This document shows positions 8,154-54,001 of a stretch of 64,000 nucleotides of DNA, in pieces. The stretch is from positions 121,125-185,124 of the forward strand of contig CAYUTO010000001.1 of the NCBI GenBank assembly GCA_964447765.1, written 5' to 3'. Position numbers and translations under genes: made by a program. This DNA is from an uncultured Gammaproteobacteria bacterium. GTDB taxonomy: Bacteria; Patescibacteriota; Patescibacteriia; Magasanikbacterales; UBA922. The notes below the pieces were generated by a model. That model saw nothing but the letters and a program-made list of their open reading frames with translations, searched no databases and was not told where the DNA came from. Position 1 is the first letter of the stretch. Every line of letters begins with the position of its first letter.

Positions 8154-8164
8154 CGCCTTTTTTA

Positions 8165-30296: not shown

Positions 30297-30377
30297 TGTA
30301 TATTTAGTGAAAAATATATTTATTTGAGCGGATTTACTCGGGCGACTGGGAGACGTTAGAGCTCATTTTATCAAAAA

Positions 30378-33167: not shown

Positions 33168-33176
33168 AGTATTCTA

Positions 33177-34667
33177 TTAACAAGAGTGCTTTACCAAAAA
33201 CTCCCAAATTCGAACCATCGCCATCGTATCAAGTTTACAATACTCAAGGAGGTCTTCTTTGATGGTTTGTTTTTCTTCTTTCGTAGCCTTGTCTCCAATC
33301 ATGTATTCCCATCGTTCACTGGCTTGATCACCTTTTTGGATATTCAAGCTCTTATACGTCAAATCAGGCACCAATACAGGCAATATTTTTTTGATACTGG
33401 CACTTCCCACGAACTTTGCGTCTACATAGTATTGATTCGAGAATATCTCCATGAGGTCAAAGATATTGTCTACCAAACTCATAAGAAAATCAGCATGTTC
33501 AGGATGAAGCTCTATAAGTTTTTCAATACGTTGTTTCTCGTAATTTTTGTACCACACGATGAGTGTTCCATTCGGGTCGAGATCCTCACGCATTCTGTCG
33601 ACGAGTGCTTTAGTCATATCACGACTAGACTCGGTAATCAAGAACTCTTTATGCTCTGTTGTGCCGTCTTCCTGAACGATATGGAGTGAGTATTGAAACG
33701 GAATCTGTTCGTATGCACCAAACCCATTTGCAAGGGGGATAACGCTCGTATAGCCCTCAAAATCAAAGAATTGGAGGGGGTATTGAAGCCCACCAAGTAA
33801 CTCTCGTATCTTGTCATGGTCTATAGATGTTTTTCCTGTAATGTACGCCTCGTATTGAGCTTTTTTTGCACCTTTCAGGGATTCAGGATTGTCTATGTCT
33901 TCCAAAGCGTAGATACCCCGATCAATCCAATCTTCCAATAATTTTTTGCTTCCACCGATACGGTTTATATCGTGTACAGAATACTCGGGTACTTGTGGGT
34001 TTGAGTGAGCAAAGGTAGTACATTGATTGCTTCGCCCTTGATAGATACAGAGACAGCCCTTTTCTTCGGGCATAGTGAGATACTGCTTCATGTCTTCCAT
34101 TTGTTTTCTCACCTCATCGTCAAGAGTGGTTACTTCTCCTGAAACATCTTCGGTCACAAATAATTCGTAATAATTGATTGCGCCGTTTCGTCTATACTCT
34201 CTATTGAGATGAATAACACCCGTTTTCACAATCTTGATACCACTTTTTTCAATAACAATCTTCTGAAAAGCAAGATCCTTGATATAGTGCATTGGTTCTT
34301 TTCGTTTTATTTCATTCGCCGCCTTTACCTCATAGAGTTCATAGCCACCAAGCTCGTTATTTTTTACCAATACATCGGCTCGGATAAAGAATACATCTTC
34401 TTGAAAGGTGGCCTGAAATAGTATCTGTGTACCAACTTCAATATATTGCTTTGTGTCATTTACGGCGTCCGCACCCTGACTATCTACGAAAACGCCACCG
34501 TTAAATAGGTGACGTGCTTCGGTATCTGCAAGGTTTCCTTCTTCGATAATCTTACGCTCAAATTCCGACAACTCGACACCTTCAAAAAGCTCGGGCTTGT
34601 GTTTTTTTAGCCAAAGATTTTTTCTACAAAAGGTATATTCGAGATAGTCGGTTTTGGTTAAGATCAT
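33177..34667 (-). CDS. DUF2779-like domain protein (predicted nuclease-related)
   Basis: N-terminal ILTKTDYLEYTFCRKNLWLKKHKPELF matches the LSKS.F..G.QC.K.LWL..H.PEL pattern of DUF2779 proteins. Confidence 0.5.
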   Translation of the reverse strand: MILTKTDYLEYTFCRKNLWLKKHKPELFEGVELSEFERKIIEEGNLADTEARHLFNGGVFVDSQGADAVNDTKQYIEVGTQILFQATFQEDVFFIRADVLVKNNELGGYELYEVKAANEIKRKEPMHYIKDLAFQKIVIEKSGIKIVKTGVIHLNREYRRNGAINYYELFVTEDVSGEVTTLDDEVRKQMEDMKQYLTMPEEKGCLCIYQGRSNQCTTFAHSNPQVPEYSVHDINRIGGSKKLLEDWIDRGIYALEDIDNPESLKGAKKAQYEAYITGKTSIDHDKIRELLGGLQYPLQFFDFEGYTSVIPLANGFGAYEQIPFQYSLHIVQEDGTTEHKEFLITESSRDMTKALVDRMREDLDPNGTLIVWYKNYEKQRIEKLIELHPEHADFLMSLVDNIFDLMEIFSNQYYVDAKFVGSASIKKILPVLVPDLTYKSLNIQKGDQASERWEYMIGDKATKEEKQTIKEDLLEYCKLDTMAMVRIWEFLVKHSC

Positions 34668-36979: not shown

Positions 36980-36981
36980 AA

Positions 36982-39393: not shown

Positions 39394-39447
39394 ATATGAG
39401 CGATTATCTTTCGTATTCACTATTCGCTATTCAGTTTCTTAACCCAC

Positions 39448-40257
39448 ATGAAACTCTCCGCCGACACCATCAAGAAGCGCATGCTCGAGTTCACGCAACT
39501 CTTCTCGATAGAGCGGAATGTTTTTCAGCGTTTCGTGATTGTATATAAATACATCTACTTCCTCAACACCGACCCAGTAGCAAAAAGCGTTCTCCAAAAG
39601 ATATTCGACGAGACCTCCAAAGTCATGGGCGAACACAGCGAAGACTGCCTCGACGAGGATCAGTTCCTCGACGTCAAAGGACAAGCTATTTTTTCACGCC
39701 AATTTTGGATATATTATAGCAATCTTGAGATTATCTACGGCAAGATGAAAAAGCTCAAGAAGTGTGGCGTTGACGATAAACTCGAGTTTGAGACTCTGTG
39801 TCAGCTGTTCTCAAAGCCCTACTCTCGAGACATGTTGTCCCTTTCGTTCAAGGTAGTGAACAGCGAGATATTCAATCAACTCGATAAAGAATCGTTTTTT
39901 GAAGCGGAGAAAGAAGAAACATGGTTTGATGACAAATTGAGTGTCCTCTACGTACGGAGTAAGAAAGTGCTTATCAATAAGCAAGACAAGATCACGAACG
40001 CTCACAAGCTCCTGCACCATATTTTCATCACCAACAAGAATAATATCGAAGACGAGTTTTTCTACTCGGAAATAGCCGATGATGAGTTTGGGGATATGGA
40101 CTACACCAAAGATCAGGAAGCATGGAAACGCTATCACCGTGCGAGTGAGTATGTGAACGAGAAAATCTGCGAACAGACAGATAATGAAATACGAGATTTC
40201 CTTGTGTATAACACAGGTAAACAAGGTAGAGTGAAAATCAACAAAGCATACCTCTAG
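39448..40257 (+). CDS. Hypothetical protein (first prophage-side gene)
   Basis: Clean 269-aa ORF followed by a hairpin and T-run terminator near 40282-40305. Confidence 0.4.
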   Translation: MKLSADTIKKRMLEFTQLFSIERNVFQRFVIVYKYIYFLNTDPVAKSVLQKIFDETSKVMGEHSEDCLDEDQFLDVKGQAIFSRQFWIYYSNLEIIYGKMKKLKKCGVDDKLEFETLCQLFSKPYSRDMLSLSFKVVNSEIFNQLDKESFFEAEKEETWFDDKLSVLYVRSKKVLINKQDKITNAHKLLHHIFITNKNNIEDEFFYSEIADDEFGDMDYTKDQEAWKRYHRASEYVNEKICEQTDNEIRDFLVYNTGKQGRVKINKAYL

Positions 40258-40430
40258 TTCCGCAAAATTCTATACAAAACAGCTCTCAACCGAGGGCTTT
40301 TTTGTTATTCCCGTAAATCTTCTCCAAAACTTTTGGGAACAGTGAAATTCTATTATGCCTACATCGCAAAAACAAAGGTCGATTGCGAACACATGTAACT
40401 CATATTTTATGAAAGAAACAATACAAGTCT

Positions 40431-40694
40431 ATGTTCAAATTAACAGGAGTTCTCAAAAAAGAAGAAGTTCGGGAGTTCACACGCAAGGACGGGAGTCAGG
40501 GACAAAGCCGAACACTCTTCATCGAACCAGAAGGAAGCGTGTACCCAGTAAAAGTAAATGTGTCCGACATGGATCTCAAAGTCGGCAAACAGGGAGAAAA
40601 AGTAACAGTCGACGTGGCAATATTTCCGTACTTTATCGAGGGCGGTAAACGCAAACGAGCGTTCACGGATTACTACATCCCTAACAAGAAATAA
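40431..40694 (+). CDS. Filamentous-phage ssDNA-binding protein (g5p-like), putative
   Basis: 87 aa, beta-rich and basic. Sits directly upstream of the small hydrophobic and coat genes, as in the inovirus order gV-gVII-gIX-gVIII. Confidence 0.45.
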   Translation: MFKLTGVLKKEEVREFTRKDGSQGQSRTLFIEPEGSVYPVKVNVSDMDLKVGKQGEKVTVDVAIFPYFIEGGKRKRAFTDYYIPNKK

Positions 40695-40696
40695 GT

Positions 40697-40849
40697 ATGG
40701 ATTTCTTTACCGTAACAACCACCACCATGAGCTTGACCGACGGCGCATTGGATCTGATTAACTTTTTCAGCCAACTCTTTACCGTGTCGTTCGCGCTGGT
40801 ATTTGGTCTGCTTGCGGTGATCATCCTTTTACTCATCTTTAAAACATAG
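40697..40849 (+). CDS. Small hydrophobic protein (inovirus minor coat g7p/g9p-like), putative
   Basis: 50 aa with one TM helix. The ATG immediately follows the g5p-like stop. Confidence 0.35.
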   Translation: MDFFTVTTTTMSLTDGALDLINFFSQLFTVSFALVFGLLAVIILLLIFKT

Positions 40850-40852
40850 GCT

Positions 40853-40963
40853 ATGGCTGGTCTCATAAACAATCTATTCGAGGGATTCGGCCTAAGCCTT
40901 ATGTTTCCTCTCGTTCTATTCATAGTCGTCAGTGTCTTCTTGGCGATAACTTCGGGCAAATAG
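40853..40963 (+). CDS. Small hydrophobic protein (inovirus minor coat-like), putative
   Basis: 36 aa with a single TM helix, tightly packed with its neighbours. Confidence 0.3.
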   Translation: MAGLINNLFEGFGLSLMFPLVLFIVVSVFLAITSGK

Positions 40964-40964
40964 T

Positions 40965-41117
40965 ATGTGTTCCGCATATATCTTACTAAACAACTCGTGC
41001 TACGTAGATGATTTCCTCATGATAGGACAGGTCTACGCTAAAGCGATTGTTCTCGGTTTGGTACTTGGAACAGTGGTCGGCTTACTATTGTTATTCATAA
41101 GACACATAAAAGACTAA
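40965..41117 (+). CDS. Small hydrophobic protein, putative
   Basis: 50 aa with a TM helix. Its stop overlaps the coat gene ATG (taATG). Confidence 0.3.
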   Translation: MCSAYILLNNSCYVDDFLMIGQVYAKAIVLGLVLGTVVGLLLLFIRHIKD

Positions 41118-41392
41118 TGGCTATGACTGAGAAAATCAAAAGCCTTGTCCTTGGTACCAAAGCAAAAGTAACCGCATTCGGGCTCGCGCTCGCTGGTGGA
41201 CTTTTGGCTGGAACAAGTGCGTTCGCTGCCGTGGACGCTGATGTCGCCTCTACGACCGCAAGTGTGGTCGACACGATGAAAGAAAATGTGGTCGGTGTAA
41301 TTACCGCCAACATCTCAAATATCGTGATTGTAGGTGTGATCATCTTCTCCATCGGCTTCGTTTGGCGCCTTGCTCGTCGGTTCATGCGATAG
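41117..41392 (+). CDS. Inovirus major coat protein (g8p-like)
   Basis: Signal peptide. Acidic/amphipathic N-terminus, a hydrophobic helix IVIVGVIIFSIGFVW, and a basic C-terminus RLARRFMR. Confidence 0.6.
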   Translation: MAMTEKIKSLVLGTKAKVTAFGLALAGGLLAGTSAFAAVDADVASTTASVVDTMKENVVGVITANISNIVIVGVIIFSIGFVWRLARRFMR

Positions 41393-41473
41393 GCTTCGGC
41401 ACTGCGGGGGCTTGCTCTCAATAAGCAAAAGCCCCCGCAACGGTGCCTCATGACATACAGATAAAATATCCAT

Positions 41474-43183
41474 ATGAATATAGCATTAACAAAACACAAA
41501 GCGACGCTCATGATTGCGATAGTGATAGGCATAGGAGTGTCGTTTTTCATTTCAGGACAAGCAAAAGCGGATAGCCCTGTGGGTGACGTCGTGGAGTTTT
41601 CACCGTCCTCAAATTGGTATACCTGGTTTATTCGTACCAGCAATGAAACAGGACATGGACAATCATTCATCACACAAGCCGACACCGAAGCAATCAGCAC
41701 CGTTGCATTCAAACTTTGCCGTCTCGGTACGATTACCAAACCAAAAACATTAACACTTTGTTCGTCCGCAACAAATGGCTGGTACGGCGGATGTGCAAGC
41801 CCACTTGCAACAAAACAATTCACCGCCGACGAGCTTAATGAAATGATTAACTACGACGCAAGTTGCAATTCAAATGCGGAGGGTGGAGCAAACGACGGAA
41901 CATATTATCACTGGTCATATTTTACCTTTGATGAGCCCGTCACGGTAAGTGGAAACACCTCGTACTTTGTACTTCTAAACAGTGCCTCAAGTGCAGACAA
42001 TGAATCGGGTTCACTGCTTCGTACCATGTACAACAATGAAAACTATCTTGGTACCAGTGAGAACTACCCGAACGGACAAGAGTATTACTATAAAGGAGCG
42101 ACACGCTATACCTACGGTGCATCAACAGATATTTTCTTCAAAGTATTTAGTGCCGACCCGATAACTGTTCCGTTTGAAATTACACATCCCTTGCAAGATC
42201 AAGAAATTATCAATGACACATGGGTCACGGTATCAGGAACATGCCCCTACGTCGGAGAAAATAGAATCGGATTTACCGATGACTGTCTCGGGTTTGAAGA
42301 AATTGAATACACGGCGGCGTGTACCGAAGATCACACATTCTCGGCACAATTTTATCACACGAGTTTATCCGACAGAGTGATTGCGAGAGAAGTAGATAGT
42401 ATATCGGGCGATTGCGTTGATTACGATAATTTAATGGATTTCGTAACAGTCGACGGTATTGAGTTTGTCGACGGCTATCCCGAAGATTGGTATTTCAATT
42501 TCGGGATATATGACGATTATGATATTACGATTAAAAGCCCCGTGTTTGATGTCGCACTCACGCTTCCACGAGGCTCTACCTCAAAAGAATTTACATTCTC
42601 ATTCACATATCCCGAAGAAGCACTCGAAGACCTCACATTCGTGATTGCACAGTACGACCACGAGGGAAACTTGATAACGGATAATTTTCACACACGAACA
42701 CTCGAAAGCATGGCAGACACGAGCGATTATCAGGTAACGCTCTCCGCAACCACGACAGCATATCACTATGTTGTACAACTCATAGAAGACGCAACACTCA
42801 AGCGACAGTACCCATTTGGCATCTTTGTTTCCGACCTCGACTTTGTAGCAAATCCCGATGAAACAAATTATTTCTTTCCTCGCATTGTGACGGAACTACG
42901 AAAAAAGATTGTCTTCAATTACTACTTTGCGTTTCATGACGGCTTTTACAATATGTTCAACGGACAATATTCAAGCCCATCTTCAAACGCACTCGACATT
43001 ACATTCAAAAGTATGTCAGGAGACGGACAATACAATCTCGATGTAAAAGTATTTTCAGCAAGCGACCCGAGAGTAAAATCATTCACCAGTGCCATGCGTC
43101 CCTATATCGTCGCACTCCTGTGGCTATCGTTCGCCTTGTATGTGGTCTTTCGCATAACGCATCTATTTAGTGATAACGAATAG
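41474..43183 (+). CDS. Phage adsorption/minor coat protein (g3p-like), putative
   Basis: Signal peptide, large ectodomain, C-terminal TM anchor. Sits in the gIII position. Confidence 0.45.
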   Translation: MNIALTKHKATLMIAIVIGIGVSFFISGQAKADSPVGDVVEFSPSSNWYTWFIRTSNETGHGQSFITQADTEAISTVAFKLCRLGTITKPKTLTLCSSATNGWYGGCASPLATKQFTADELNEMINYDASCNSNAEGGANDGTYYHWSYFTFDEPVTVSGNTSYFVLLNSASSADNESGSLLRTMYNNENYLGTSENYPNGQEYYYKGATRYTYGASTDIFFKVFSADPITVPFEITHPLQDQEIINDTWVTVSGTCPYVGENRIGFTDDCLGFEEIEYTAACTEDHTFSAQFYHTSLSDRVIAREVDSISGDCVDYDNLMDFVTVDGIEFVDGYPEDWYFNFGIYDDYDITIKSPVFDVALTLPRGSTSKEFTFSFTYPEEALEDLTFVIAQYDHEGNLITDNFHTRTLESMADTSDYQVTLSATTTAYHYVVQLIEDATLKRQYPFGIFVSDLDFVANPDETNYFFPRIVTELRKKIVFNYYFAFHDGFYNMFNGQYSSPSSNALDITFKSMSGDGQYNLDVKVFSASDPRVKSFTSAMRPYIVALLWLSFALYVVFRITHLFSDNE

Positions 43184-43186
43184 CGT

Positions 43187-43432
43187 ATGTTTACTTTCAT
43201 TGAATCAATTCTTGTAAAAATTATCTCACTCTTACCCGACGCTGATCCGAATAATTCAGTTATTACGGCCGTCACAAACGCATTTGCCACTATGGCACCG
43301 ACATTCTCGCAAATTGACCTTGTCTTTCCGATATTCGTATTGTTCAAAGTATTACTCCTCGTGATGTTCGTGGAAATGACAATCTTCTTGTTTACGTTCA
43401 TTTTGCAGATTGCAACATTCTTTAAACCATAA
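43187..43432 (+). CDS. Small hydrophobic protein (g6p-like), putative
   Basis: 81 aa with two hydrophobic helices, between the g3p-like gene and the Zot-like gene. Confidence 0.4.
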   Translation: MFTFIESILVKIISLLPDADPNNSVITAVTNAFATMAPTFSQIDLVFPIFVLFKVLLLVMFVEMTIFLFTFILQIATFFKP

Positions 43433-43437
43433 CCTCT

Positions 43438-44154
43438 ATGATTACCATTGTCACAGGAAAACCAGGAGCCGGAAAAACACTCTTCATGACCTACAAAGCA
43501 CTTGAAATGTTTCTCAAAGGCTACGATGTGTATGCAAATTGGAAACTTGATTTCACAAGATACGTTCTCCGAAAACAGATTGATCTCAAAACCGTCGGGC
43601 GTGTCTACTTTTGGTCTGAAATACCTGAACTCTTACACATTAAAGGCGGACAGATATTTATTGACGAAGCACAAGGATACTTTGATAGCCGTGAGTGGCT
43701 CGACATGCCACCGTCGGCAAAACAAAAATTCTCCGCTCACAGACATGATGTAAAAACAGATGAAGACGGAAACATTATTCCACTCGATATTTGGGCGGGT
43801 GTGCAACACACAGGAAATATCGACAAACGTATTCGAGACTTGGGACAGCATTATTTGGAGGTACGAAATATCTTTCGTCTTGTATTCATGGCGTCATACT
43901 TCGAACTTCACGACCTCAAAGACGACATTGTAAAACGTCGAGCAGTAAAACGAACATTCTTTGTGATGAACAAAATGAAAGCAGATTGCTACAACACACA
44001 CGAAGCCGTGAACTTTATTGAGTACCCCGAGTTTCCATACCACCGAGAATATCCAAACACACTCTCAAACGACAATACAGGGCTTATTCCCGACACACCT
44101 GACACTCCACCATATTCGAAACAGCAACGCAAAAAAGGGAGTGGATCCTTTTAG
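43438..44154 (+). CDS. Zot/pI-family filamentous phage assembly ATPase
   Basis: N-terminal P-loop IVTGKPGAGKTLFMTYKA. Length and motif match the Zot N-terminal domain. Confidence 0.7.
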   Translation: MITIVTGKPGAGKTLFMTYKALEMFLKGYDVYANWKLDFTRYVLRKQIDLKTVGRVYFWSEIPELLHIKGGQIFIDEAQGYFDSREWLDMPPSAKQKFSAHRHDVKTDEDGNIIPLDIWAGVQHTGNIDKRIRDLGQHYLEVRNIFRLVFMASYFELHDLKDDIVKRRAVKRTFFVMNKMKADCYNTHEAVNFIEYPEFPYHREYPNTLSNDNTGLIPDTPDTPPYSKQQRKKGSGSF

Positions 44155-44492
44155 GAACCACTCCCGACCTGTTCTACTTGTTTGATGTAGAACAGGTGTA
44201 CCCGTTTCGGGTACTTTCGGACGGTCGTACCGTCCTTATCTTTCTTCTCAATGATAATGAAAGACTGAAGAGCTTTTTCACCCTTCTTTACTTGGTAGCC
44301 CATCTCGAGCCACCGATTATACGTCAAACAATTACTTTTTGGATCGTAATTGTTCGCGTCCTCTTCGCCGAAGCGAGCGAGAATCTGCTTGCGTACAAGG
44401 TCGGAAGTAATTTCCGAACCTTTCCATGTGGAAACGATTGCGTTTTCCATAGAAATAAAAAATACAGCCGAATTGATAACATCCGAAGACAA
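44151..44492 (-). CDS. Hypothetical protein (prophage-encoded, opposite strand)
   Basis: Clean 113-aa ORF convergent with the Zot-like gene. Confidence 0.35.
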   Translation of the reverse strand: MSSDVINSAVFFISMENAIVSTWKGSEITSDLVRKQILARFGEEDANNYDPKSNCLTYNRWLEMGYQVKKGEKALQSFIIIEKKDKDGTTVRKYPKRVHLFYIKQVEQVGSGS

Positions 44493-44635
44493 GGCTGTTT
44501 ATTGCCGTATCGGACAAGACAGAAACAAGCGTCTGATAGCTTGCTTTAGTCAAGGTGGAGACTTGTTACTACCTTTACCAAAGAAAAGCTGACGCTATAC
44601 TGCCTCGCCCTGATACGGAATATGAGCATTGATTT

Positions 44636-44721
44636 ACGGTATCCCGTACCGAATGGATACCGTCCCTCTGACAAACAATCTTTTTTTGGCGGCTGCCCGA
44701 CGACAAAAAAAGATTGTTTGT
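44636..44721 (+). promoter_or_regulatory. Hairpin cluster upstream of Rep; candidate phage origin / packaging signal
   Basis: Perfect 17-bp inverted repeat acaaacaatcttttttt / aaaaaaagattgtttgt (44671-44721) and cggtatcc/ggataccg (44638-44662), in the Rep 5' intergenic region. Confidence 0.4.
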
Positions 44722-44759
44722 GAGCGGTTTGTTGGTACGAACGAAATCGCTCTCTTAAC

Positions 44760-45569
44760 TTGATTATATCCACACATCTAACGAAAACTATGGCACATTC
44801 CTACACACTCAAAGTAGTGGTGTCGGGAAAGCAGGTTGAAGTGTACAAGTACACGAAAGAAGTTTGGCGGGATTTTGAATCAAAACCACAAAGTGACAAA
44901 CCTCACAAAGAGCCGAAGCAACTAAACATGTTTGAACAAGAAGAGTTAAGAAAAAAGAAAGTGCAGTATTCCATAAACAGAACCAAAACCGAGATACGCC
45001 GTCTCGTAAACTCGAACCCCCACCTCAACAAATTTATGACCCTGACTTTCGCCGACAACGTAACCGACCTCAAAACTGCGAACTACTTGTTCAATCAGTT
45101 TGTTAAACGTATCTCATACCGATACAAGAATTTTGAATACTTCGCTGTCCCTGAATTTCAAAAGCGTGGAGCCGTCCACTACCACGTGCTTTGTAACCTC
45201 CCATACGTTGAAATGGACGCACTTGAATACACATGGGGACATGGAATGGTAAATATCCGCAAAGTCGACGAAGTAAACAATCTCGGGGCGTATATGAGCA
45301 AGTACCTCGGCAAAGAATTATTCTCTGGTCGTATGTTTGGTAAGAAAAAATTCTTTCGCTCACAAACACTCAAGGAACCTGTTGAACTTATCTCATGGTG
45401 GGCGATGAAATTTATTGATAAGTTTCTTTCGCTTCTCAAGCCCGTGTTTGAAAAGAAGTTTGAAAGTGAATATATCGGCGAGGTGGAATACACGGCGTAT
45501 ACGCTTGATCGTATTGTATTCAAGGACGGCATACTCAATCCTGCCGTGTTAATGGGAACAGTATGGTAA
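44760..45569 (+). CDS. HUH rolling-circle replication initiator (Rep)
   Basis: Motif 2 HUH in AVHYHVLCN. Motif 3 with two Tyr, GAYMSKYLGKE. Confidence 0.65.
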   Translation: MIISTHLTKTMAHSYTLKVVVSGKQVEVYKYTKEVWRDFESKPQSDKPHKEPKQLNMFEQEELRKKKVQYSINRTKTEIRRLVNSNPHLNKFMTLTFADNVTDLKTANYLFNQFVKRISYRYKNFEYFAVPEFQKRGAVHYHVLCNLPYVEMDALEYTWGHGMVNIRKVDEVNNLGAYMSKYLGKELFSGRMFGKKKFFRSQTLKEPVELISWWAMKFIDKFLSLLKPVFEKKFESEYIGEVEYTAYTLDRIVFKDGILNPAVLMGTVW

Positions 45570-45727
45570 GCGAAGCACGTATAAAAGAGCTACAACTTAT
45601 CATAAAGGAAGAATACGGCGAGGATATAAGCTACGAAGAAACAAGCATTTTAGCGAATATACTTGTTCGATATTTTAGCAATCTTGAGAAGGCATATTTA
45701 TCTTGCAAAAAGAAAGAAATGTGGTAA
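45563..45727 (+). CDS. Small protein, paralog of 45871..46059
   Basis: 54 aa. Shares an EEYGE...S.EE pattern with the next small ORF. Confidence 0.3.
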   Translation: MVSEARIKELQLIIKEEYGEDISYEETSILANILVRYFSNLEKAYLSCKKKEMW

Positions 45728-45870
45728 AATATCCGTGCTACCCAATATACATTTTAGACAAAAGCTTTTTATATTTGTCCCCAGTAAGGGGCGGTTCTTG
45801 CCGATAAATATAGGCTTTTGTCTTGTTTATTGGGTAGCCAAGACCGTCCCTTTTTGTTTACAAAAAATAT

Positions 45871-46059
45871 ATGCAATTTACAAAAGAACAAGTTGAATCA
45901 TTCAAGGCATTATATAAAAAAGAATTTGGCGAGGAATTAACAGATGAGCAAGCTCAAATAGAGGCTAGTGATTTAATAGACATGCTCAAAGTCGTGTGTA
46001 AACCCGCAAAACGATCCATCTATGAAAAATTCGCAGCAGAAAAAAGAGCACTTAAATAG
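45871..46059 (+). CDS. Small protein, paralog of 45563..45727
   Basis: 62 aa with a KEFGEELTDEQAQIEASDLIDML segment. Overlaps the recombinase start. Confidence 0.35.
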   Translation: MQFTKEQVESFKALYKKEFGEELTDEQAQIEASDLIDMLKVVCKPAKRSIYEKFAAEKRALK

Positions 46060-47662
46060 TGGTACCAGACAATCTATTATTTTTTGTCGTGTATCCAGTA
46101 AAGAACAAGAAGAAACTGGATACTCTTTGCCTGCTCAAGAAAAATATTTGAAAGATTATTGTGGCAGAAATTCAATTCGCATTGAAAAAATATTCAAGAT
46201 ATCCGAAAGTGCGAGTGGCGAAAAGCAACGAAGTAAGTTTGCTGAAATGATGGGATTTGTCGAAAAGCAAGATATTAAGATTATTGTATGTGAAAAAGCC
46301 GACCGTCTCACGAGAAACTTCAAAGACATGGTAGCGATAGATCAATGGCTTGAGCATGATGAAAAACGAGAAGTCCATTTGGTAAAGGATAGTCTTATTA
46401 TGCACCGTGGATCAAAATCCCAAGAAAAACTTAATTGGGGTATTCGTATTTTGTTTGCAAAAAACTATATCGACAATTTAAGCGAGGAAGTAAAGAAAGG
46501 TCAGAAAGCAAAAGTTGAAGAAGGGTGGTTGCCAGTACGCCCACCACTAGGATATGCCACGATTGGCGAAAAGGGACACAAAACGCACGTTATCGATACC
46601 ACAGAGGCTCCACATATCAAAAAGATGTTTGAACTGTATTCTACGGGCAATTACTCGCTCAAAAAACTATCTGATGATTTGTACAATAATGGCTTTCGTT
46701 CGAAAAGCGGGAAAAAGGTCGGTAAAAGCACACTGCACCGACTTTTGGGCGATCCATTCTATTATGGACGCTTCCGCTGGAAAGGTAAGGAATATGCTGG
46801 CAAGCACGAGCCTATCATCACGAAAGACGTATATAACAAAGTACAGGATATTATGGTACGACCAATAAAGTCTCCAAGATACAGAAAACATTTACCTCTA
46901 TTTAAAGGTAAAATAAAATGTGGCGAGTGTGGTGGCACAATTACATGGGAACAGCAAAAAGGCTCATGGTATGGACATTGCAACAAGTACAAGCCTTGTT
47001 CACAAAAGAAATACATAAAACAAGAAGACGTAGAGGAAATGCTTGTACCCCTTATTATTAAAATTTCACCCAAGACCGAGCGTGTATTGGATTGGCTGGC
47101 AGATTCGCTCAAAGATACGCATGAGGATCAAAAAGAATACTCCGAAACAAAAAATACAGACCTAAATATCGAACTTGAAAAAATAAACAAACGGCTAAGC
47201 ACAATCTATGATGATAAGGTGGACGGCGTAATTTCCATTGATTTTTACAATCAGAAATTTGAAGAATACGTAGAAAAGAAAGAAAAAATACTTGAACAAA
47301 TAAATAAGCTCGAAGACAGTACAAATGACTTTTACAAGAAAGCTGTCGCAATCCACGAACTTGCATATCGAGCACGCCATCTACTTTTAAGCCCAAATAC
47401 ACAGGTAGAAGTAAAGCGAGATATATTAAGTGATATTTTTTCGAACTTTGAACTAAAAGACGGTAAGATAAGCGAAAAATATACTCCTGAATTTGAATTT
47501 TTGGAAAAATGGATGCCGAAGCTCAATGAAACTTTCGAACTGCAAGAAAATGGCTCAACAAAAGAAAAAACAGGCTCTTGCGAACCTGCTCGTTCTGTAT
47601 TGCTCGGGGACAGGGATTCGAACCCCGATAAAAGGCTTCAAAGGCCTCTGTCCTACCATTAG
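46022..47662 (+). CDS. Large serine recombinase (phage integrase type)
   Basis: Resolvase catalytic domain IIFCRVSSKEQ (Ser nucleophile). Recombinase domain, zinc-ribbon CGECGG...C, C-terminal coiled coil. The 3' end reads into tRNA-Gln. Confidence 0.75.
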   Translation: MKNSQQKKEHLNSGTRQSIIFCRVSSKEQEETGYSLPAQEKYLKDYCGRNSIRIEKIFKISESASGEKQRSKFAEMMGFVEKQDIKIIVCEKADRLTRNFKDMVAIDQWLEHDEKREVHLVKDSLIMHRGSKSQEKLNWGIRILFAKNYIDNLSEEVKKGQKAKVEEGWLPVRPPLGYATIGEKGHKTHVIDTTEAPHIKKMFELYSTGNYSLKKLSDDLYNNGFRSKSGKKVGKSTLHRLLGDPFYYGRFRWKGKEYAGKHEPIITKDVYNKVQDIMVRPIKSPRYRKHLPLFKGKIKCGECGGTITWEQQKGSWYGHCNKYKPCSQKKYIKQEDVEEMLVPLIIKISPKTERVLDWLADSLKDTHEDQKEYSETKNTDLNIELEKINKRLSTIYDDKVDGVISIDFYNQKFEEYVEKKEKILEQINKLEDSTNDFYKKAVAIHELAYRARHLLLSPNTQVEVKRDILSDIFSNFELKDGKISEKYTPEFEFLEKWMPKLNETFELQENGSTKEKTGSCEPARSVLLGDRDSNPDKRLQRPLSYH

Positions 47663-47673
47663 ACGATCCCCGA
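47603..47673 (-). tRNA. tRNA-Gln (anticodon UUG)
   Basis: Manual fold: acceptor TCGGGGA/TCCCCGA, anticodon stem-loop GAGGC-CTTTGAA-GCCTT, T-arm CGGGG-TTCGAAT-CCCTG, discriminator G. CCA is not encoded. Confidence 0.8.
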
Positions 47674-47761
47674 ATAAATTAAGTCGAAAGTGTAAAGTCT
47701 AAAAGTCTGTAAAGTCACATACAAAATACGTTATGACTTTATAGACTTTGAGGACGTTCGA

Positions 47762-48679
47762 CTAAGTCCGCAGATACCGTCTCATGGCAAGCATGCTCGA
47801 GAAGAGCGTGAGAAGAAATACTGCTCCGAATTGAATTCCAATCAGGAAGAGTATATGTGACGTGAAGTAATTTGTCAAGATTGCCTCTGACTCAAAAATG
47901 ACGCTTACATAGGGGTCGAGGAACTTGAGCGTGAACCATGCAATGACACTGGTAATGAAGACACTTATGACGGTAAAAATAAATGACTCCACGAGATACG
48001 GCCCACTGATAAACCAGTTGGTAGCACCCACCAATCGCTTGATTCCAATCTCGGTGCGCTGCGTATAGATAGCCACACGAATAGTATTGAAAATAATCAC
48101 AAATGCGATAATTGCAAATAGTGCGGTGAGCGCATACGTGAAGCGCTCGACCTGCACCGTTATTGTCTGGATTCGATCTATTGCAGTTTCAGTATCCCCA
48201 AATGTCTTTGCTTCAATAATACTTTCGTACTCAGGAACTGAAAGTGCAGTAATGATCTTCTGATAATCCTTTGGCTCTCTCGTTTTTACAATGAGAGTCG
48301 AGCCGAGTGGATTCCCTCCCAGTTCATCGAGGGACTCGATAATCTCGGTATTGCCGGAATAGGTATTTTTGAATTCTTCAAGTACTTCTTCTTTGGTCAA
48401 ATACCGCTCATCAGTAACTTCGGGAAGAGAAGAAACAAATGCTCGCACTTCTGCAATATTTTCATCAGTTGCTGTCGGGTCAAAATAGATACTCACATCA
48501 ATCTGGTCTTTCACCGACTGAATTGATTGATCAGTGAGTACGCGGACGATAATCAGTGTATTGATCGAGAGTAACATGAGAATCAAAATGAGTACGGTCA
48601 TAAATGACAAACTCATGTTTCTCACAATGTCTTGAAATGAAAATTTGATAATGCGACCAAGTGACATAAAAAAATTCAA
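47762..48679 (-). CDS. ftsX: Cell division permease-like protein FtsX
   Basis: Four-TM FtsX topology with a large periplasmic loop. Directly downstream of ftsE. Confidence 0.7.
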   Translation of the reverse strand: MNFFMSLGRIIKFSFQDIVRNMSLSFMTVLILILMLLSINTLIIVRVLTDQSIQSVKDQIDVSIYFDPTATDENIAEVRAFVSSLPEVTDERYLTKEEVLEEFKNTYSGNTEIIESLDELGGNPLGSTLIVKTREPKDYQKIITALSVPEYESIIEAKTFGDTETAIDRIQTITVQVERFTYALTALFAIIAFVIIFNTIRVAIYTQRTEIGIKRLVGATNWFISGPYLVESFIFTVISVFITSVIAWFTLKFLDPYVSVIFESEAILTNYFTSHILFLIGIQFGAVFLLTLFSSMLAMRRYLRT

Positions 48680-48695
48680 AACTTAAATCTCAAGA

Positions 48696-49376
48696 CTAAA
48701 TTCGATATCTTCCCTCACGCTCATCAGACACTACTCGTCCATCATGTAATACTACTACTCGTCGTTTGAGCTGATTTACGATTTCACGATTGTGGGTCAC
48801 GAGCATGATCGTGGTTCCAAATTCATTTATTTTTTTCAAAATTTCAATAATTTCCTGTGTATTAATGGAATCCAAATTTCCCGTAGGCTCATCTGCTACC
48901 AAAATTTTTGGTCGATGTACGAGTGAACGAGCAATTGCTACACGCTGCTGTTCCCCACCTGAGAGCTGATGTGGATAGCGCTCTACCTTGTGAGCAAGTC
49001 CTACAATTTCGAGTACCCGAGGAACAATTTGCTTGATTCGTTTTCTTTTTTCTCCTGCTACTTCAAGCGCGAATGATACGTTTTCTAATACCGTTCGTTT
49101 TGGTAATAATTTGAAATCCTGAAAGATAACTCCGATCTGGCGACGAAGCAATGGAATATCATGGAGTGAAATTTTGGTAATGTCCCATCCTCCAATTTCA
49201 ATAAATCCTGCAGTCGGACGTTCTTCTGCGATCAGCATTTTCACGAGTGTTGTTTTTCCGGTTCCACTTTGTCCTACGATTGATACAAATTCACCTGGTT
49301 CGATATGAAGACTTACTTCATGCAAACCAATGCTGTCGTGAGAGTAATGTTTGCTTACGTTTTTGAGCGTAATCAT
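48696..49376 (-). CDS. ftsE: Cell division ABC ATPase FtsE
   Basis: Walker A GQSGTGKTT, signature LSGGEQQRVAIAR, Walker B ILVADEPTGNLD. Confidence 0.8.
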   Translation of the reverse strand: MITLKNVSKHYSHDSIGLHEVSLHIEPGEFVSIVGQSGTGKTTLVKMLIAEERPTAGFIEIGGWDITKISLHDIPLLRRQIGVIFQDFKLLPKRTVLENVSFALEVAGEKRKRIKQIVPRVLEIVGLAHKVERYPHQLSGGEQQRVAIARSLVHRPKILVADEPTGNLDSINTQEIIEILKKINEFGTTIMLVTHNREIVNQLKRRVVVLHDGRVVSDEREGRYRI

Positions 49377-49591
49377 AAATAATTATACAAGTGAAATATA
49401 GTATAACATATTTGAGAATAGCGATACAACATGAAGAAGAATTGAAGAATAAAGATTGAAGATTGTGTAATCCTTTAGTCTTTATTCTTCAGTCTTTCCC
49501 CTATTTCACACCTCAATCGGCTCTACCCCAGTAAAAACGATAATTAGTGTGTCGGATCAAGCAGTACTCCCGCTTGATCCGACATTTCTCT

Positions 49592-50248
49592 TCACACGCT
49601 CGCTTGAGCTTCCTGCTCCTTCAGGAACGCTGCTCCGTGACCCACACTCGTGTTGATCGGAACACCTTCCTTGCAGGGCCCATACTCCTTGCACTCCTCC
49701 CACGTCCAGCTCTCGGTGGGGAGCTCGAGCAGGCAGGTGAGGCTGGGAGCCTGGAGACGCTCTGCATCCACGCCACCACGATTCACGACCGCGGTGACAG
49801 CGAACACGTAGCCTTTGCACTCTTTTACGAGCGCGACCGTGTTTGCGACCGACTCTCCAGTCGACAGTACATCTTCGACGACGAGGACATTCTTGCCCTC
49901 CACCTGCGAAGGATCTTCGAAGTAGAAGAACTTCAGCTCGCTCAGATGCTTCTTCGCGGGGATGCCGAGAATCTCTCTTCCTTTGAGGATCGAGAGTTCG
50001 TGTGCGACAGCGATTGCGAGCTTGGTACCTCCAGTCTCAGGCCCGGTCACCACGTCGATCGGTGCGTCTACATACTCCCGAGCAATCATGCTCGTGAAGA
50101 CCTGTAGCGCCCCTTCGGACTTGAGAACTGCCTTGATGTTGATGTAGACCCTGGTGTGCCTACGTGACGCCATGATCATATGGCTCCCGGTGATGATTGC
50201 CCCGCTCTCTTCGAGCAGCTGGGACACTACTATCTCGTCACTTGTCAT
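49592..50248 (-). CDS. pyrE: Type I phosphoribosyltransferase, orotate phosphoribosyltransferase-like
   Basis: PRPP-binding motif VLVVEDVLSTGES. Adjacent to pyrF. Confidence 0.55.
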   Translation of the reverse strand: MTSDEIVVSQLLEESGAIITGSHMIMASRRHTRVYINIKAVLKSEGALQVFTSMIAREYVDAPIDVVTGPETGGTKLAIAVAHELSILKGREILGIPAKKHLSELKFFYFEDPSQVEGKNVLVVEDVLSTGESVANTVALVKECKGYVFAVTAVVNRGGVDAERLQAPSLTCLLELPTESWTWEECKEYGPCKEGVPINTSVGHGAAFLKEQEAQASV

Positions 50249-50266
50249 GAGTACTCCTTAGTTGTT

Positions 50267-51076
50267 CTAGACCGTTCTAGCCATGCGGAGTTGATCCGCG
50301 TACCACCGAGCACGCTCGCCAGGCGACTCAGCGAAGATGATGTCTCTTGCCACATTGAAGATGGCATTCTTGCCAGCTACCTTCACCGTTGCACTGAGAT
50401 CACCTTCTTGCGTACCGAGCCCTGGCACGAGCTTGAAGATTCCATCTCCCAAGACGTTACGCGCGAGCTGAATGTCATCGGGGAAGGTAGCACCAAGGAC
50501 CAGTCCGCAGTTATGATTCTCATTCCACTCGGTCTCCACTGCTTTCGCAATGTGCAACCACAGCGGAAGACCGCTCGGCTGAACCAGATCCTGAAACTCT
50601 CCAGCACCAGGATTTGAAGTCTTTGCCAGGAAGATGCAGCCCTTATTCTTGAGGTCGAGGAAGGGTTGCATGGCTTCACGCCCGAGATACGGGTGCAACG
50701 TCACTGCATCCGCTCTCATGGTATCGAAAAGTCCCCAGATGTAGGCGAGGTTGGTGTTGCCGATGTCACCCCGTTTTGCATCGACGATCACCGGCACCTC
50801 GGGTACGGTCGCGTGGATATGAGCGATGACGCGCTTCAGCGCATCGAAGCCTTCGCCACCATAAGCCTCGAAGAATGCGATGTTCGGCTTGAATGTTGCT
50901 ACGTACTCGGACGTCTCATCGACGATCGAGCAGCAGAATCGAACGAGTGCCGCCATGATACCGAGTCCTTGAATGGACTTGGGCATCTTGTCGAGTACCG
51001 GATCCAGGCCTACGCAGAGCGAACGTCCTGTAGCCAACCGTGCATGTTGCAGGTCTTTGAAAACTCTTTTTTTCAT
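50267..51076 (-). CDS. pyrF: Orotidine 5'-phosphate decarboxylase, type 2
   Basis: LCVGLDP motif and ~270-aa length typical of the type-2 (actinobacterial-type) PyrF. Confidence 0.7.
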   Translation of the reverse strand: MKKRVFKDLQHARLATGRSLCVGLDPVLDKMPKSIQGLGIMAALVRFCCSIVDETSEYVATFKPNIAFFEAYGGEGFDALKRVIAHIHATVPEVPVIVDAKRGDIGNTNLAYIWGLFDTMRADAVTLHPYLGREAMQPFLDLKNKGCIFLAKTSNPGAGEFQDLVQPSGLPLWLHIAKAVETEWNENHNCGLVLGATFPDDIQLARNVLGDGIFKLVPGLGTQEGDLSATVKVAGKNAIFNVARDIIFAESPGERARWYADQLRMARTV

Positions 51077-51167
51077 CTAAGTCCCCTCACTATTGGAATG
51101 ACCAACCAGCCACTGTAGCATGGTTTTCCACGCACTAACGTACGTGAAAATGTATACAAAGTCAATC

Positions 51168-51198
51168 AAAAAAAACCGCCCTATTCGGACGGTTTTTA
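51168..51198 (-). terminator. Rho-independent terminator after gpsA
   Basis: ccgcc...ggacgg hairpin followed by a T-run on the minus strand. Confidence 0.5.
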
Positions 51199-51208
51199 CA
51201 GTTATTAT

Positions 51209-52108
51209 TTACTTCACAATCTCGCTCAGTAGTTCATGTTTTCCTTGCAAAATATGATGAATCGTATGGAGTAGTGGGTACGAACTCACATCACCCAACA
51301 ATTCTACCACGATTGGAGTTGAGACTACTCCTTCACACTCACTCGGCTTTGCCCCTGCGGCAATACGACGACCTTCTCCTCGATGTCTCGAATCTTCACT
51401 CATACCTGTTGCAATAAAATCTCCCATTCCCGCAAGCGTATACGCAGTTTCTTTCTTTCCTCCCAACGCTTCAATTTCTCTACCCATTTCTTCAATCACT
51501 TTCGTTGCATACCACCCACGAGCATTACTCCCCATCCCCTGCTCATCAAGCATTCCCAATCCCATGGCATACACATTTTTCAAAACACCTGCAAGAACTG
51601 TCCCATGCACATCGTCACTATAGTTCAGTAGTATCCGACTACCGTGGAACATAGCGACGATGCGAGTATACGTCTCGGATGACTCGCTTGCTACTGCCCC
51701 GAATGCATATTTCCCTGCATCAATTTCTGGAGCAACCATAGGTCCACCAAAAAATGCAAATGGTTGTAGTGGTACGACATCCTTCACGATTTGATCCGCA
51801 GTTTTCATGGTATTTTTTTCAAAACCTTTTGCAACTGAAATAATCAAGGTGTCAGGTTTCAGATATGACTTGATTCTCTCGAGGGTTTCTCGTATCACCC
51901 ATGAATGTATACACAAAAATACCACCTCAGCTGTAGACACTTGCTCTTCAAGCGTTCCTTCACCGGTACACTTTGTAGGATCAATATCCCACCACACCAC
52001 GTCGTTTCCACCCCCTTGCACTATCTTTCCGATTGCACTTCCAATTTTTCCTCCTCCAATTACTAGGACTTTGTTCATACTATTATCTATACTATATATT
52101 CTATTCAC
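51209..52108 (-). CDS. gpsA: NAD(P)H-dependent glycerol-3-phosphate dehydrogenase-like
   Basis: N-terminal Rossmann motif VLVIGGGKIGSAIG. The C-terminal domain resembles GpsA. Confidence 0.65.
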   Translation of the reverse strand: MNRIYSIDNSMNKVLVIGGGKIGSAIGKIVQGGGNDVVWWDIDPTKCTGEGTLEEQVSTAEVVFLCIHSWVIRETLERIKSYLKPDTLIISVAKGFEKNTMKTADQIVKDVVPLQPFAFFGGPMVAPEIDAGKYAFGAVASESSETYTRIVAMFHGSRILLNYSDDVHGTVLAGVLKNVYAMGLGMLDEQGMGSNARGWYATKVIEEMGREIEALGGKKETAYTLAGMGDFIATGMSEDSRHRGEGRRIAAGAKPSECEGVVSTPIVVELLGDVSSYPLLHTIHHILQGKHELLSEIVK

Positions 52109-52153
52109 CTAAATTTATCACAATATGATACTATTAATCAATAATACTATCCT

Positions 52154-52666
52154 ATGCTTTCACTCGAAAATATTTACTCCCAAGCTGCAGACAAAATAAT
52201 CCTATTTAACGACTTTGTACATACGCATGCACTACACAATACTCTGATTGCAGACCACATCGGATATAAATGTTCATCGACTAAACATTTTGAAATGCTC
52301 CGCGCACTTCTGGAAGCCCACTCAGAATACGTCTACCAATCAATTATTTCAGAACGGCGTATCGCAGTTATAAAACTCAAAAAATCTATTTTAACCACCT
52401 GTGGCCCAATTTATTTTTTGGAATTATCAGACCAAAAACCAGATCATAGTCAAAAGGACGGATTTGATCATCTTGAATGTTACCCAACAAGTGAAACAGT
52501 TGAAATGCTCGCCACCTATTTAACCGAGAAACAAATTACTATAGACAAAGTTGTCCGCCCTCATCACACTACATATGATAGTTCTCTTTCAGATAATTTT
52601 AAACTCCGCTTGGAAGCTGAACCTTTGATTAATAAAATTGTTCGTGAAGAGATCAAGTCGGTATAA
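52154..52666 (+). CDS. Hypothetical protein
   Basis: Clean 170-aa ORF with no confident motif. Confidence 0.35.
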   Translation: MLSLENIYSQAADKIILFNDFVHTHALHNTLIADHIGYKCSSTKHFEMLRALLEAHSEYVYQSIISERRIAVIKLKKSILTTCGPIYFLELSDQKPDHSQKDGFDHLECYPTSETVEMLATYLTEKQITIDKVVRPHHTTYDSSLSDNFKLRLEAEPLINKIVREEIKSV

Positions 52667-52707
52667 GCCACATACATAAAATAACCCAAAATGGGTTATT
52701 TTATTAT

Positions 52708-52783
52708 TGGAGCCGATGTCGGGGATCGAACCCGAGACCTACAGTTTACGATACTGCCGCTCTACCAGCTGAGCTACATCGGC
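52708..52783 (-). tRNA. tRNA-Thr (anticodon CGU)
   Basis: Manual cloverleaf: acceptor GCCGATG/CATCGGC, D-arm GCTC-AGCTGGTA-GAGC, anticodon loop ATCGTAA, T-arm TCGGG-TTCGATC-CCCGA, CCA encoded. Confidence 0.85.
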
Positions 52784-52882
52784 GTTTGCAATGTCAAAAA
52801 GAAAAGCGAAAAAGTCAAAAGATAATACACATACAACTCTATAAGCAGCCGTAATTTTAGCTAAAATAGGTCGCATTGTCAA

Positions 52883-54001
52883 TCATGTTCGGTGATAAGC
52901 GCCTACCGCATCAGCAATCGTCGTATATCCATCACACTTGAGTAAATGCACTAGTTCATAATTAATTGATCCGATAAGCTGAGGACCTTCATAAATCATC
53001 CCGGTAATCAATTGTACGAAAGACGCTCCCCGCTTTATCTTCTCATATGCATCCTCAGCGGAAAATACACCCCCTGTACCAATGATTACCATCTTATCGC
53101 CACAATATGCATACGTCTTTGAAATAAGCTCATTTGAGAGCTCCCAGGTAGGCTTCCCACTAATAGATCCTCGAATATTCTCAGGAATTTGTTCTTTGAT
53201 TGAGGCATCAGATCTATCTTTATTGAGATTACCAATATTCACTGCTTGTACACCAAAGTGTAACGCCACGTCCAACAATGAACGAAATTCTTCCCATGGT
53301 AAATTGATAGGCATCTTGAGAATAATCGGTTTGTTTAGTTTCTCGACACTCAATGCTTCGAGCAGTTTTTGTAATCTATCGCGTGTAGTAAAAGGTTCGC
53401 CCCCAAATGTATTGGGGCACGAAATATTCAGTTCATATATATCGCCCTCGTCATGATCTCGAAATACCTGCACACAATTTCTATAATCATCGATACCACT
53501 TTCTTCATCTGATGTTCTACTGCAATTAGTCTTACCTATTGATATTACCCGAGGAATCGTTTTTTTCTCTGTTTTCAGATGAGCTACAATATTTTCTGCT
53601 CCACTATTTTTGAGTCCATAATAGACTACGAGTCCCTGTGAATGCGGCAGACGGTACAACCGAGGCTGTGGATTACCCTCATACGCACCAAAAGTCACTG
53701 TACCTACTTCTGAAAAACCAAACCCCATGTCACCAGCTATCGTACAAAGTTTTCCTTCTTTATCAAATCCAGCAGCAAGCCCCACTGGATTACCAAAATA
53801 GATTCCCCACTTACTCTGCCCAAGCGAAGGGTGAGCAAAATTAAAACTCATCTGAATCAGCTTTCTACCCAATCTATTTCTACCCAATCTAGCACCTATC
53901 GCAACCATTCGATCATGCACCACTTCAGGATCCTGCGCAAAAAAAATCGGTTTAAGAATCCCGCGATACAACAAACGAAACACCACACTTCTATATCGCA
54001 T
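52883..54001 (-). CDS. pyrD: Dihydroorotate dehydrogenase (quinone), class 2
   Basis: N-terminal membrane-association segment. Motifs GNPVGLAAGFDK and ELNISCPNT, plus GTGGV near the C-terminus. Confidence 0.75.
   Translation of the reverse strand: MRYRSVVFRLLYRGILKPIFFAQDPEVVHDRMVAIGARLGRNRLGRKLIQMSFNFAHPSLGQSKWGIYFGNPVGLAAGFDKEGKLCTIAGDMGFGFSEVGTVTFGAYEGNPQPRLYRLPHSQGLVVYYGLKNSGAENIVAHLKTEKKTIPRVISIGKTNCSRTSDEESGIDDYRNCVQVFRDHDEGDIYELNISCPNTFGGEPFTTRDRLQKLLEALSVEKLNKPIILKMPINLPWEEFRSLLDVALHFGVQAVNIGNLNKDRSDASIKEQIPENIRGSISGKPTWELSNELISKTYAYCGDKMVIIGTGGVFSAEDAYEKIKRGASFVQLITGMIYEGPQLIGSINYELVHLLKCDGYTTIADAVGAYHRT

Follow-up and report, generated by a model that had tools for sequence, protein, structure and literature searches.

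A GC-rich pyrF and PyrE-like gene pair, probably acquired horizontally, at a multi-allelic locus of Candidatus Magasanikbacteria

Between the native genes gpsA and ftsE, the stretch of DNA analysed here (the window: 64,000 nucleotides of contig CAYUTO010000001.1, assembly GCA_964447765.1) carries an insert of 1737 bp (49433..51169, minus strand) with a guanine-plus-cytosine (GC) content of 0.535, which encodes a type-2 orotidine-5'-phosphate decarboxylase, PyrF, and a PyrE-like type I phosphoribosyltransferase (PRTase). This GC-rich island is probably a small accessory operon that was acquired horizontally in an ancestor of one species complex of Magasanikbacteria. A preliminary description of the window had proposed a horizontal origin, and two observations support it: the composition of the genes is foreign at all three codon positions, and the same gpsA-ftsE site is empty in related genomes. 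The host belongs to Candidatus Magasanikbacteria, within the Candidate Phyla Radiation (CPR/Patescibacteria), as judged from the NCBI names of proteins that are identical to those of the window or share a 90% cluster with them, including an identical FtsE. Transcription of the operon would proceed on the minus strand through a leader, pyrF, the gene of the PyrE-like PRTase and a 3' hairpin.

GC content across 49547-51100 is 0.554, against a mean of 0.394 (standard deviation 0.035, maximum 0.462) in other windows of the same 1554 bp, corresponding to a z of 4.6, and it peaks at 0.597 in one 300-bp window. The 2-kb flanks have a GC content of 0.40-0.41, and the edges of the island are sharp and match the gene ends. 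The island and its abrupt borders had been described before and are upheld, while the figures given for them, about 60% GC within flanks of about 38%, were slightly overstated. Codon usage bears out the same distinction. At third codon positions, GC (GC3) is 0.63 in pyrF (z 3.9) and 0.71 in the PRTase gene (z 5.0), compared with a mean of 0.354 (standard deviation 0.071) in the other 53 open reading frames (ORFs). The first and second positions are raised along with the third, with GC1 0.61 and GC2 0.41 in both genes, whose overall GC contents are 0.547 for pyrF and 0.574 for the PRTase gene. Long ORFs also run across the island on the plus strand (49547-50107, 50180-50617 and 50666-51118). 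None of these has a Pfam match and they are therefore artefacts of high GC, as had been suspected.

Comparison loci were drawn from a scan of GTDB species representatives (80 loci listed, the window's own genome not among them) and from a scan of JGI metagenomes. Across 98 other loci, the GC content of pyrF follows that of its flanks with a slope of 1.00 (r 0.97, residual standard deviation 0.027). The window pyrF lies 0.14 above this line, or about 5 standard deviations, and the window PRTase gene lies 0.17 above the corresponding PRTase line (residual standard deviation 0.036), again about 5 standard deviations. Gene-specific regressions for each codon position imply a background GC of 0.53, 0.48 and 0.55 from the first, second and third positions of pyrF, and of 0.52, 0.53 and 0.60 from those of the PRTase gene. 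Lawrence and Ochman reportedly set out the amelioration framework in which acquired genes of atypical base composition are interpreted. Because GC3 does not lag behind the first and second codon positions, both genes look as if they had equilibrated in a genome of 50-60% GC and had barely ameliorated. The donor background implied by these regressions would be about 50-60% GC (near 55%), and an actinobacterial donor of 65-72% GC would not fit. Under the proposed history, the genes would have reached this equilibrium before transfer and would have changed hardly at all since.

The second line of evidence is the insertion site. In a blastn comparison with the relative L089 (GCA_964394405.1), positions 47566-49432 of the window align with 11832-9944 and positions 51170-53980 with 9915-7136, and the limits of the insert were defined against such relatives. 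Altogether, four genomes (L089, L090, L091 and L092, the last being GCA_034680565.1) have an empty site, where gpsA is followed by ftsE after 120-190 bp. Both flanking genes are native and lie on the minus strand. Upstream is gpsA, encoding glycerol-3-phosphate dehydrogenase (51209..52108; Pfam NAD_Gly3P_dh_N and NAD_Gly3P_dh_C; GC3 0.36), whose intrinsic terminator (51171..51197, minus strand), identified by a terminator scan, is kept in occupied and empty sites and forms the upstream border of the insert. Downstream is ftsE (48696..49376; Pfam ABC_tran; GC3 0.31), preceded by a promoter-like region at about 49377-49430 with the motif TTGTATCG...ATATGTTATACTATA, which is likewise common to both kinds of site. 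Insertion would thus have occurred between the terminator of gpsA and the promoter of ftsE in the ancestor of the species complex. On the far side of gpsA, between this gene and tRNA-Thr, a YecM-like gene (52154-52666, plus strand) is a separate indel among close relatives, being present in the window and L004, absent from L001 and L173, and truncated in L089.

The same junctions between low-GC and high-GC DNA are found in further assemblies. One of these, L004 (Logan SRR12712864), is 100% identical to the window over 9.9 kb and may stem from the source sample itself. The others are L173 (GCA_018061425.1), L175 (SRR26425197), L001 (GCA_965084955.1), the pair L002/L003 (ERR2985255 and ERR2985268) and L087 (JGI 3300014059), which show 3-15% sequence divergence with an unchanged architecture. 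The window, L173, L175, L001 and L002 make up the species complex, within which backbone genes are 91-97% identical in nucleotide (nt) sequence. Synonymous divergence (dS) within the complex is 0.12-0.23 for the island genes and 0.12-0.48 for backbone genes. Since the dS of the island resembles that of the backbone and the junctions are common to the complex, the island predates the diversification of the complex. The earlier term "recent" is therefore not upheld at the level of strains, the island having diverged together with the backbone, and is valid only on the slow time scale of amelioration. The island genes are under purifying selection: their ratio of nonsynonymous to synonymous divergence (dN/dS) is 0.06-0.24, compared with 0.00-0.12 in backbone genes. 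For the PRTase gene this ratio is 0.06-0.24, and for pyrF, measured against close alleles, it is 0.08-0.15.

Within this species complex, the locus is recombination-prone and multi-allelic, and its genes are dispensable at the population level. Two pyrF alleles, A in the window, L173 and L002, and B in L001 and L175, encode proteins that are 48% identical on near-identical backbones, and their distribution is discordant with the genealogies of gpsA and the PRTase gene. The exchanged pyrF segment is bounded by the stop codon and by a point about 35 nt ahead of the start codon. In L002/L003, the pyrF variant A' is present and the PRTase gene is missing, with about 108 bp between pyrF and the hairpin (L002 2406-2513). 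In L175, a nonsense change from CAG to TAG splits the B allele (7744-8589) into two ORFs. Both states point to decay of the island in these relatives. The sister lineage L087 has an FtsE that is 97.8% identical to that of the window, while its PyrF and PRTase are 41% and 49% identical. With a dN of 0.51 for the PRTase gene against 0.015 for ftsE in this comparison, divergence in place is ruled out. All versions found at the locus are GC-rich (GC3 0.62-0.77), and the 3' hairpin is kept in every version whose 3' end was recovered.

Both genes appear to encode enzymes of pyrimidine synthesis, as had been proposed when they were assigned to the last two steps of UMP formation. The assignment is firm for pyrF (50267..51076, minus strand), whose product of 269 amino acids contains the motif SLCVGLDP and matches TIGR02127 over its full length with 215.4 bits, above the cut-off of 110.6 (Pfam OMPdecase, 8.9e-29). 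Its identification as a type-2 enzyme was thus correct. In an alignment of 36 sequences that includes the window PyrF, residues D99, K101 and D104 (DAKRGD) together with K63 occupy invariant columns, and we take these residues to be the catalytic ones. Compared with other members of PyrF subfamily 2 (TIGR02127), the window protein is alike in exceeding the curated cut-off and in retaining all invariant residues. It differs in being a deep, long-branched member, with at most 57% identity outside its own species complex, and in that its gene lies 0.14 in GC above its genomic background. The earlier view of type-2 PyrF as a hallmark of lineages with high GC, Actinobacteria for example, proved wrong, since native low-GC copies from CPR genomes pass TIGR02127. 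Native low-GC genes that are positive for this model occur in L062 (a metagenome-assembled genome, MAG, of Magasanikbacteria, GC 0.38), L015, L028, L016 and L055, and low-GC native type-2 pyrF is also seen in Gottesmanbacteria, Curtissbacteria and other genomes.

The PRTase gene (49592..50248, minus strand) encodes 218 amino acids including NVLVVEDVLSTGES, and its product is PyrE-like and probably an orotate phosphoribosyltransferase (OPRT), judging from sequence matches, gene neighbourhood and a structural model. The loop that binds phosphoribosyl pyrophosphate (PRPP), VLVVEDVLSTGES, is present, and Pfam Pribosyltran is matched with 35.9 bits. Among the NCBIfam models, pyrE_Therm (TIGR01367) scores highest with 68.0 bits, below its cut-off of 150.25, and TIGR00336 gives 58.2 bits, below 106.8. 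The best sequence matches in the PDB are OPRTs (E about 2e-7). An AlphaFold (AF2) model with a mean predicted local distance difference test score (pLDDT) of 91.8 has the type I PRTase fold, and its top Foldseek matches are the OPRT HP1257, adenine phosphoribosyltransferases (APRTs) and the Mycobacterium tuberculosis OPRT, with E values of about 1e-10. As OPRTs and APRTs match this model about equally, the structure search does not split the two specificities. The earlier reading of the gene as pyrE-like is favoured by best matches and neighbourhood and fails on the PyrE cut-offs. As for the neighbourhood, about 40 of the 80 metagenome loci that encode homologues of the PRTase have pyrF no more than 400 bp away, and the pair is found in named CPR MAGs (Saccharibacteria, Gottesmanbacteria and Kaiserbacteria) and in one Ktedonobacteraceae MAG. 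Given these occurrences in CPR and Chloroflexota, the gene pair is not specifically actinobacterial. Set against the Thermus-type OPRT (TIGR01367) and the M. tuberculosis OPRT (PDB 5hkf), the window PRTase shares the type I fold and the VLVVEDVLSTGES loop and has OPRTs as its best sequence matches, and its gene immediately follows pyrF, an order also seen in many loci of CPR and Chloroflexota. It is unlike them in falling far below the equivalog cut-offs and in carrying a C-terminal extension with two cysteines, C186 and C192, which are invariant in its family (consensus ECPLC..GVPINT).

If these assignments are correct, the products of the island would convert orotate and PRPP to orotidine monophosphate (OMP) and then to uridine monophosphate (UMP). 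The preceding step belongs to the product of pyrD (52883..54001, minus strand), a quinone-dependent (class-2) dihydroorotate dehydrogenase that matches TIGR01036 with 239 bits (cut-off 200). With GC 0.413 and GC3 0.33, pyrD is of native composition, as had been stated of this adjoining gene. Together with this native PyrD, the island could allow the cell to make UMP from dihydroorotate or from orotate. CPR/Patescibacteria are believed to rely on hosts for their nucleotides. A module leading from orotate or dihydroorotate to UMP that is lateral, variably present and under purifying selection bears on the metabolic patching of such reduced cells, and also on how freely metabolic patches are exchanged among CPR/Patescibacteria.

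Three parts of the insert are non-coding. The leader (51077..51169, minus strand, GC 0.43) contains a TTGACT hexamer and occurs in island-bearing genomes only. Conservation of the leader among the window, L001 and L002 reaches to within about 35 nt of the start codon and holds for genomes with different pyrF alleles as well. No consensus sigma-70 promoter was called in the leader, and no Rfam family was matched in the leader or the insert, the sub-threshold Leu_leader signal lying over the gpsA terminator only. At the other end, 8 nt past the stop codon of the PRTase gene, is a GC-rich stem-loop (49550..49584, minus strand), which probably serves the operon as a terminator or 3'-end hairpin. 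A hairpin with a 12-bp stem had been placed at this edge (49551-49583). It is confirmed here with arms of 13 nt (49550-49562 and 49572-49584) that are 100% complementary around a 9-nt loop, and its RNA has a predicted folding energy of -32.2 kcal/mol (z -5.3). The terminator scan did not call it because its T-run comes only 11 nt beyond the stem. One stem position is occupied by A-T, G-C or G-T among variants, and since the G-T variant can still form a G-U pair in RNA, a role in RNA, as terminator or 3'-end stabiliser, is favoured. Like the leader, the hairpin is missing from empty sites. Beyond it lies an AT-rich trailer (49433..49546, minus strand, GC 0.34) in which the ACACTAATTATCGTTTTTAC motif is conserved and an inverted repeat, an imperfect one, spans 49436-49498. 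The window and L001 differ in the distal part of this trailer.

Two further identities were considered for the stem-loop and rejected. As a dispersed repeat of the REP or MITE kind it would be expected elsewhere, and it is unique in the window and occurs in the other scanned loci only downstream of island copies. An integron cassette came into question solely because divergent cargos have this hairpin in common. The hairpin is a single perfect 13-bp structure, and there is no tyrosine integrase nearby.

Several observations weigh against a horizontal acquisition in the ancestor of the species complex. The genomes with an empty site are more distant, their ftsE being 79-81% identical in nt sequence to that of the window, or roughly at genus-to-family distance, so that deletion in those genomes is possible. 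At the island, no flanking direct repeats, target-site duplication, terminal inverted repeats, integrase or tRNA target were found, and the nearest recombinase (46022-47662) is part of a separate element beyond ftsEX. A search of 5.8 billion proteins revealed no close donor, the nearest relatives outside the complex being 57% identical for PyrF-A and 50% for the PRTase, and for PyrF-B nothing closer than 48% was found in that search beyond its own group. Nor was a close donor present among the GTDB species-representative matches listed or in the JGI metagenome scan. Collections of plasmid and phage DNA held no relative of the island, and viral contigs yielded only three 35%-identical matches to the PRTase, on contigs of 112-192 kb. 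As for the rest of the pathway, neither pyrB, pyrC and carAB nor any pyrimidine-pathway gene beyond those described above was found among the approximately 40 window ORFs scanned against Pfam.

The nearest relatives raise a further difficulty of the same kind, as four of the five inspected are in turn GC-rich islands, set among other neighbours in contigs of low GC. These are the pyrF genes of L085 (gene GC 0.58, flank 0.37), L086 (0.57-0.58, flank 0.38) and L177 (0.61, flank about 0.44), and the pyrF and PRTase genes of L087 (0.59-0.60, flank 0.39). Three of the four contigs look CPR-like, and a native low GC is found only in L176 (pyrF 0.39, flank about 0.41). A rough neighbour-joining (NJ) tree unites the pyrF copies in one clade with long branches, and a single clade of GC-rich copies would also be expected from a long-resident lineage in which GC is maintained. 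Additional PRTase/pyrF islands were seen in the JGI contigs L165, L170, L171 and L149, while a literature search on GC-rich pyrF or pyrE in CPR returned nothing. Two of the related loci have features of their own: the GC-rich pyrF of L085 (8863-10858) has a tyrosine integrase and restriction-modification genes as neighbours, and that of L177 (1007-2463) lies behind a second GC-rich ORF of 147 amino acids with a GC3 of 0.69.

These relatives bring up an alternative that is unlikely, namely that the genes represent a long-lived, GC-rich pyrF/PRTase cassette family within low-GC Patescibacteria, which is swapped at hot spots such as gpsA-ftsE and whose GC content is actively maintained. Exchange would occur by recombination at the conserved leader and hairpin flanks, and the high GC, instead of being the remnant of a recent donor, would be kept up by selection acting on codons or on mRNA or, at a hot spot of recombination, by GC-biased gene conversion. 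If this were true, the genes would have a compositional equilibrium of their own, unlike that of the rest of the genome. Consistent with such a family, the GC-rich copies are mutually nearest (for pyrF, allele A of the window, allele B of L001, L085, L086 and L177; for the PRTase gene, alleles A and B), and the search of 5.8 billion proteins gave neither allele A nor allele B nor the PRTase a homologue of higher identity from a high-GC genome. The 3' hairpin and trailer are common to divergent alleles, GC3 stays within 0.62-0.64 across four pyrF alleles of only 44-65% identity, and the codon positions look equilibrated rather than decaying.

Outgroup-polarised substitutions within the complex bear on this directly. 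At third positions of the island genes there are 33 changes from G or C to A or T (S>W; rate 0.0405 per site) and 17 in the opposite direction (W>S; 0.0445 per site), compared with 50 (0.0280 per site) and 98 (0.0274 per site) in native genes. The ratio of W>S to S>W rates is therefore the same in island and native genes, with no GC-favouring bias specific to the island, and the island is in net loss of GC, although both statements rest on small counts. The test does not recover the native equilibrium and cannot fix equilibrium values. It weakens the case for a maintained GC content without overturning it. Other observations likewise count against it: the clade is not uniform, with L176 at a native low GC of 0.39 and L177 at a GC3 of 0.80, most low-GC genomes hold pyrF and PRTase genes of matching low GC, and a GC3 excess of 0.3 is without a known mechanism in bacteria.

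Far less probable is a native, vertical origin, in which the rise in GC happened in situ and the empty sites arose by deletion. This would accord with the occupation of the site in both the species complex and the sister lineage L087, where a homologous hairpin is found, and with the greater distance of the empty-site genomes. Against it stand the shifts in GC1 and GC2, and hence in amino-acid composition, alongside that in GC3, and another MAG of Magasanikbacteria (L062), whose pyrF has a native GC content. Moreover, dN between the A and B versions of pyrF and of the PRTase gene is 0.46-0.51, against a dN of 0.015 and a dS of 0.6 for ftsE. As this divergence lies far beyond that of the hosts, at least some of the alleles arrived from elsewhere.

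Slightly less plausible still is a direct, recent import from an actinobacterium or another donor of very high GC, which had been suggested on the grounds that the genes are GC-rich and that pyrF subfamily 2 is also held by Actinobacteria. This suggestion was not sustained, as no close donor was found and the implied background of 0.48-0.60 is not the 0.65-0.72 that such a donor would require. Among the matches listed, the Actinomycetota loci (L010, L029, L032, L045 and L082) are 41-48% identical and no closer than those of CPR, Chloroflexota or proteobacteria. The nearest named relatives of the PRTase are from Magasanikbacteria and Chloroflexaceae, the named neighbours further out are Chloroflexota (Ktedonobacteria and Chloroflexaceae) and various CPR, and the rough NJ tree suggests a placement outside Actinomycetota. 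Both the order of pyrF followed by the PRTase gene in CPR and Ktedonobacteraceae MAGs and the age of the island, which is older than the species complex, point the same way. Finally, that the island is a chimeric assembly or a binning contaminant, as the abrupt jump in composition at both edges might suggest and as had been put forward for checking, has a negligible probability, since both junctions recur in assemblies from other accessions, several of them diverged by 3-15%, and misassembly is thereby excluded.

Elsewhere in the window, several features are of interest in their own right. An inovirus-like integrated element (39400-47700) adjoins tRNA-Gln (47602-47673) and includes a Zot-like ATPase (43438-44154), a replication protein of the Rep ORF2/G2P type (44760-45569) and a large serine recombinase (46022-47662) with an ORF that extends into the tRNA-Gln gene. 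The whole of 25.6-47.6 kb is missing from the close relative L173. Within this region, a defence-like block (29706-38736) encodes a DUF2779 protein (33177-34667), a ResIII helicase (34664-36979) and an N6/N4 DNA methylase (36982-38736), along with two ORFs of very low GC (0.29-0.30, GC3 0.20), one of which encodes 929 amino acids (30378-33167). Neither of these two ORFs has a Pfam match at E<=1e-5. As a low-GC island, the block is the mirror image of the pyrF/PRTase island. Also missing from L173 is a carotenoid-type cluster (16713-21674) of a UbiA prenyltransferase, a polyprenyl synthase, a phytoene/squalene synthase, a CrtI-like amine oxidase and Caroten_synth, which is probably an unusual possession for a member of the CPR. 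Two very large proteins of secreted type (10368-13253 and 21960-25016; 961 and 1018 amino acids) have C-terminal peptidoglycan-binding domains, to which one adds GLUG motifs and the other C-type lectin and Big_5 domains.

An acquired operon of this sort is ordinary in kind, and what merits follow-up is only its multi-allelic, uniformly GC-rich population structure without a traceable donor. With empty, two-gene, one-gene and pseudogene states and divergent alleles, the locus is a compact natural case of gene-cassette turnover in an uncultivated lineage. It also carries a caution, in that an unameliorated GC signature alone does not denote a recent event at the strain level, and the subfamily of an enzyme is uninformative on the GC content of its donor.

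Compared with a classical acquired genomic islet, the island is alike in its sharp compositional borders, its presence or absence among genomes, its intergenic site and its accessory metabolic function. It is unlike such islets in being without an integrase, a tRNA target, direct repeats or a close donor, and in having several deeply divergent, equally GC-rich alleles at one site on near-identical backbones. Capsule and O-antigen gene clusters are known as multi-allelic replacement loci between conserved flanks. Unlike these clusters, the cargo here consists of two housekeeping-type pyrimidine enzymes, for which there is no evident reason for diversifying selection. By analogy, the gpsA-ftsE locus may nonetheless be likened to them, as both involve the exchange, within one species, of divergent and compositionally atypical alleles that lie between conserved flanks.

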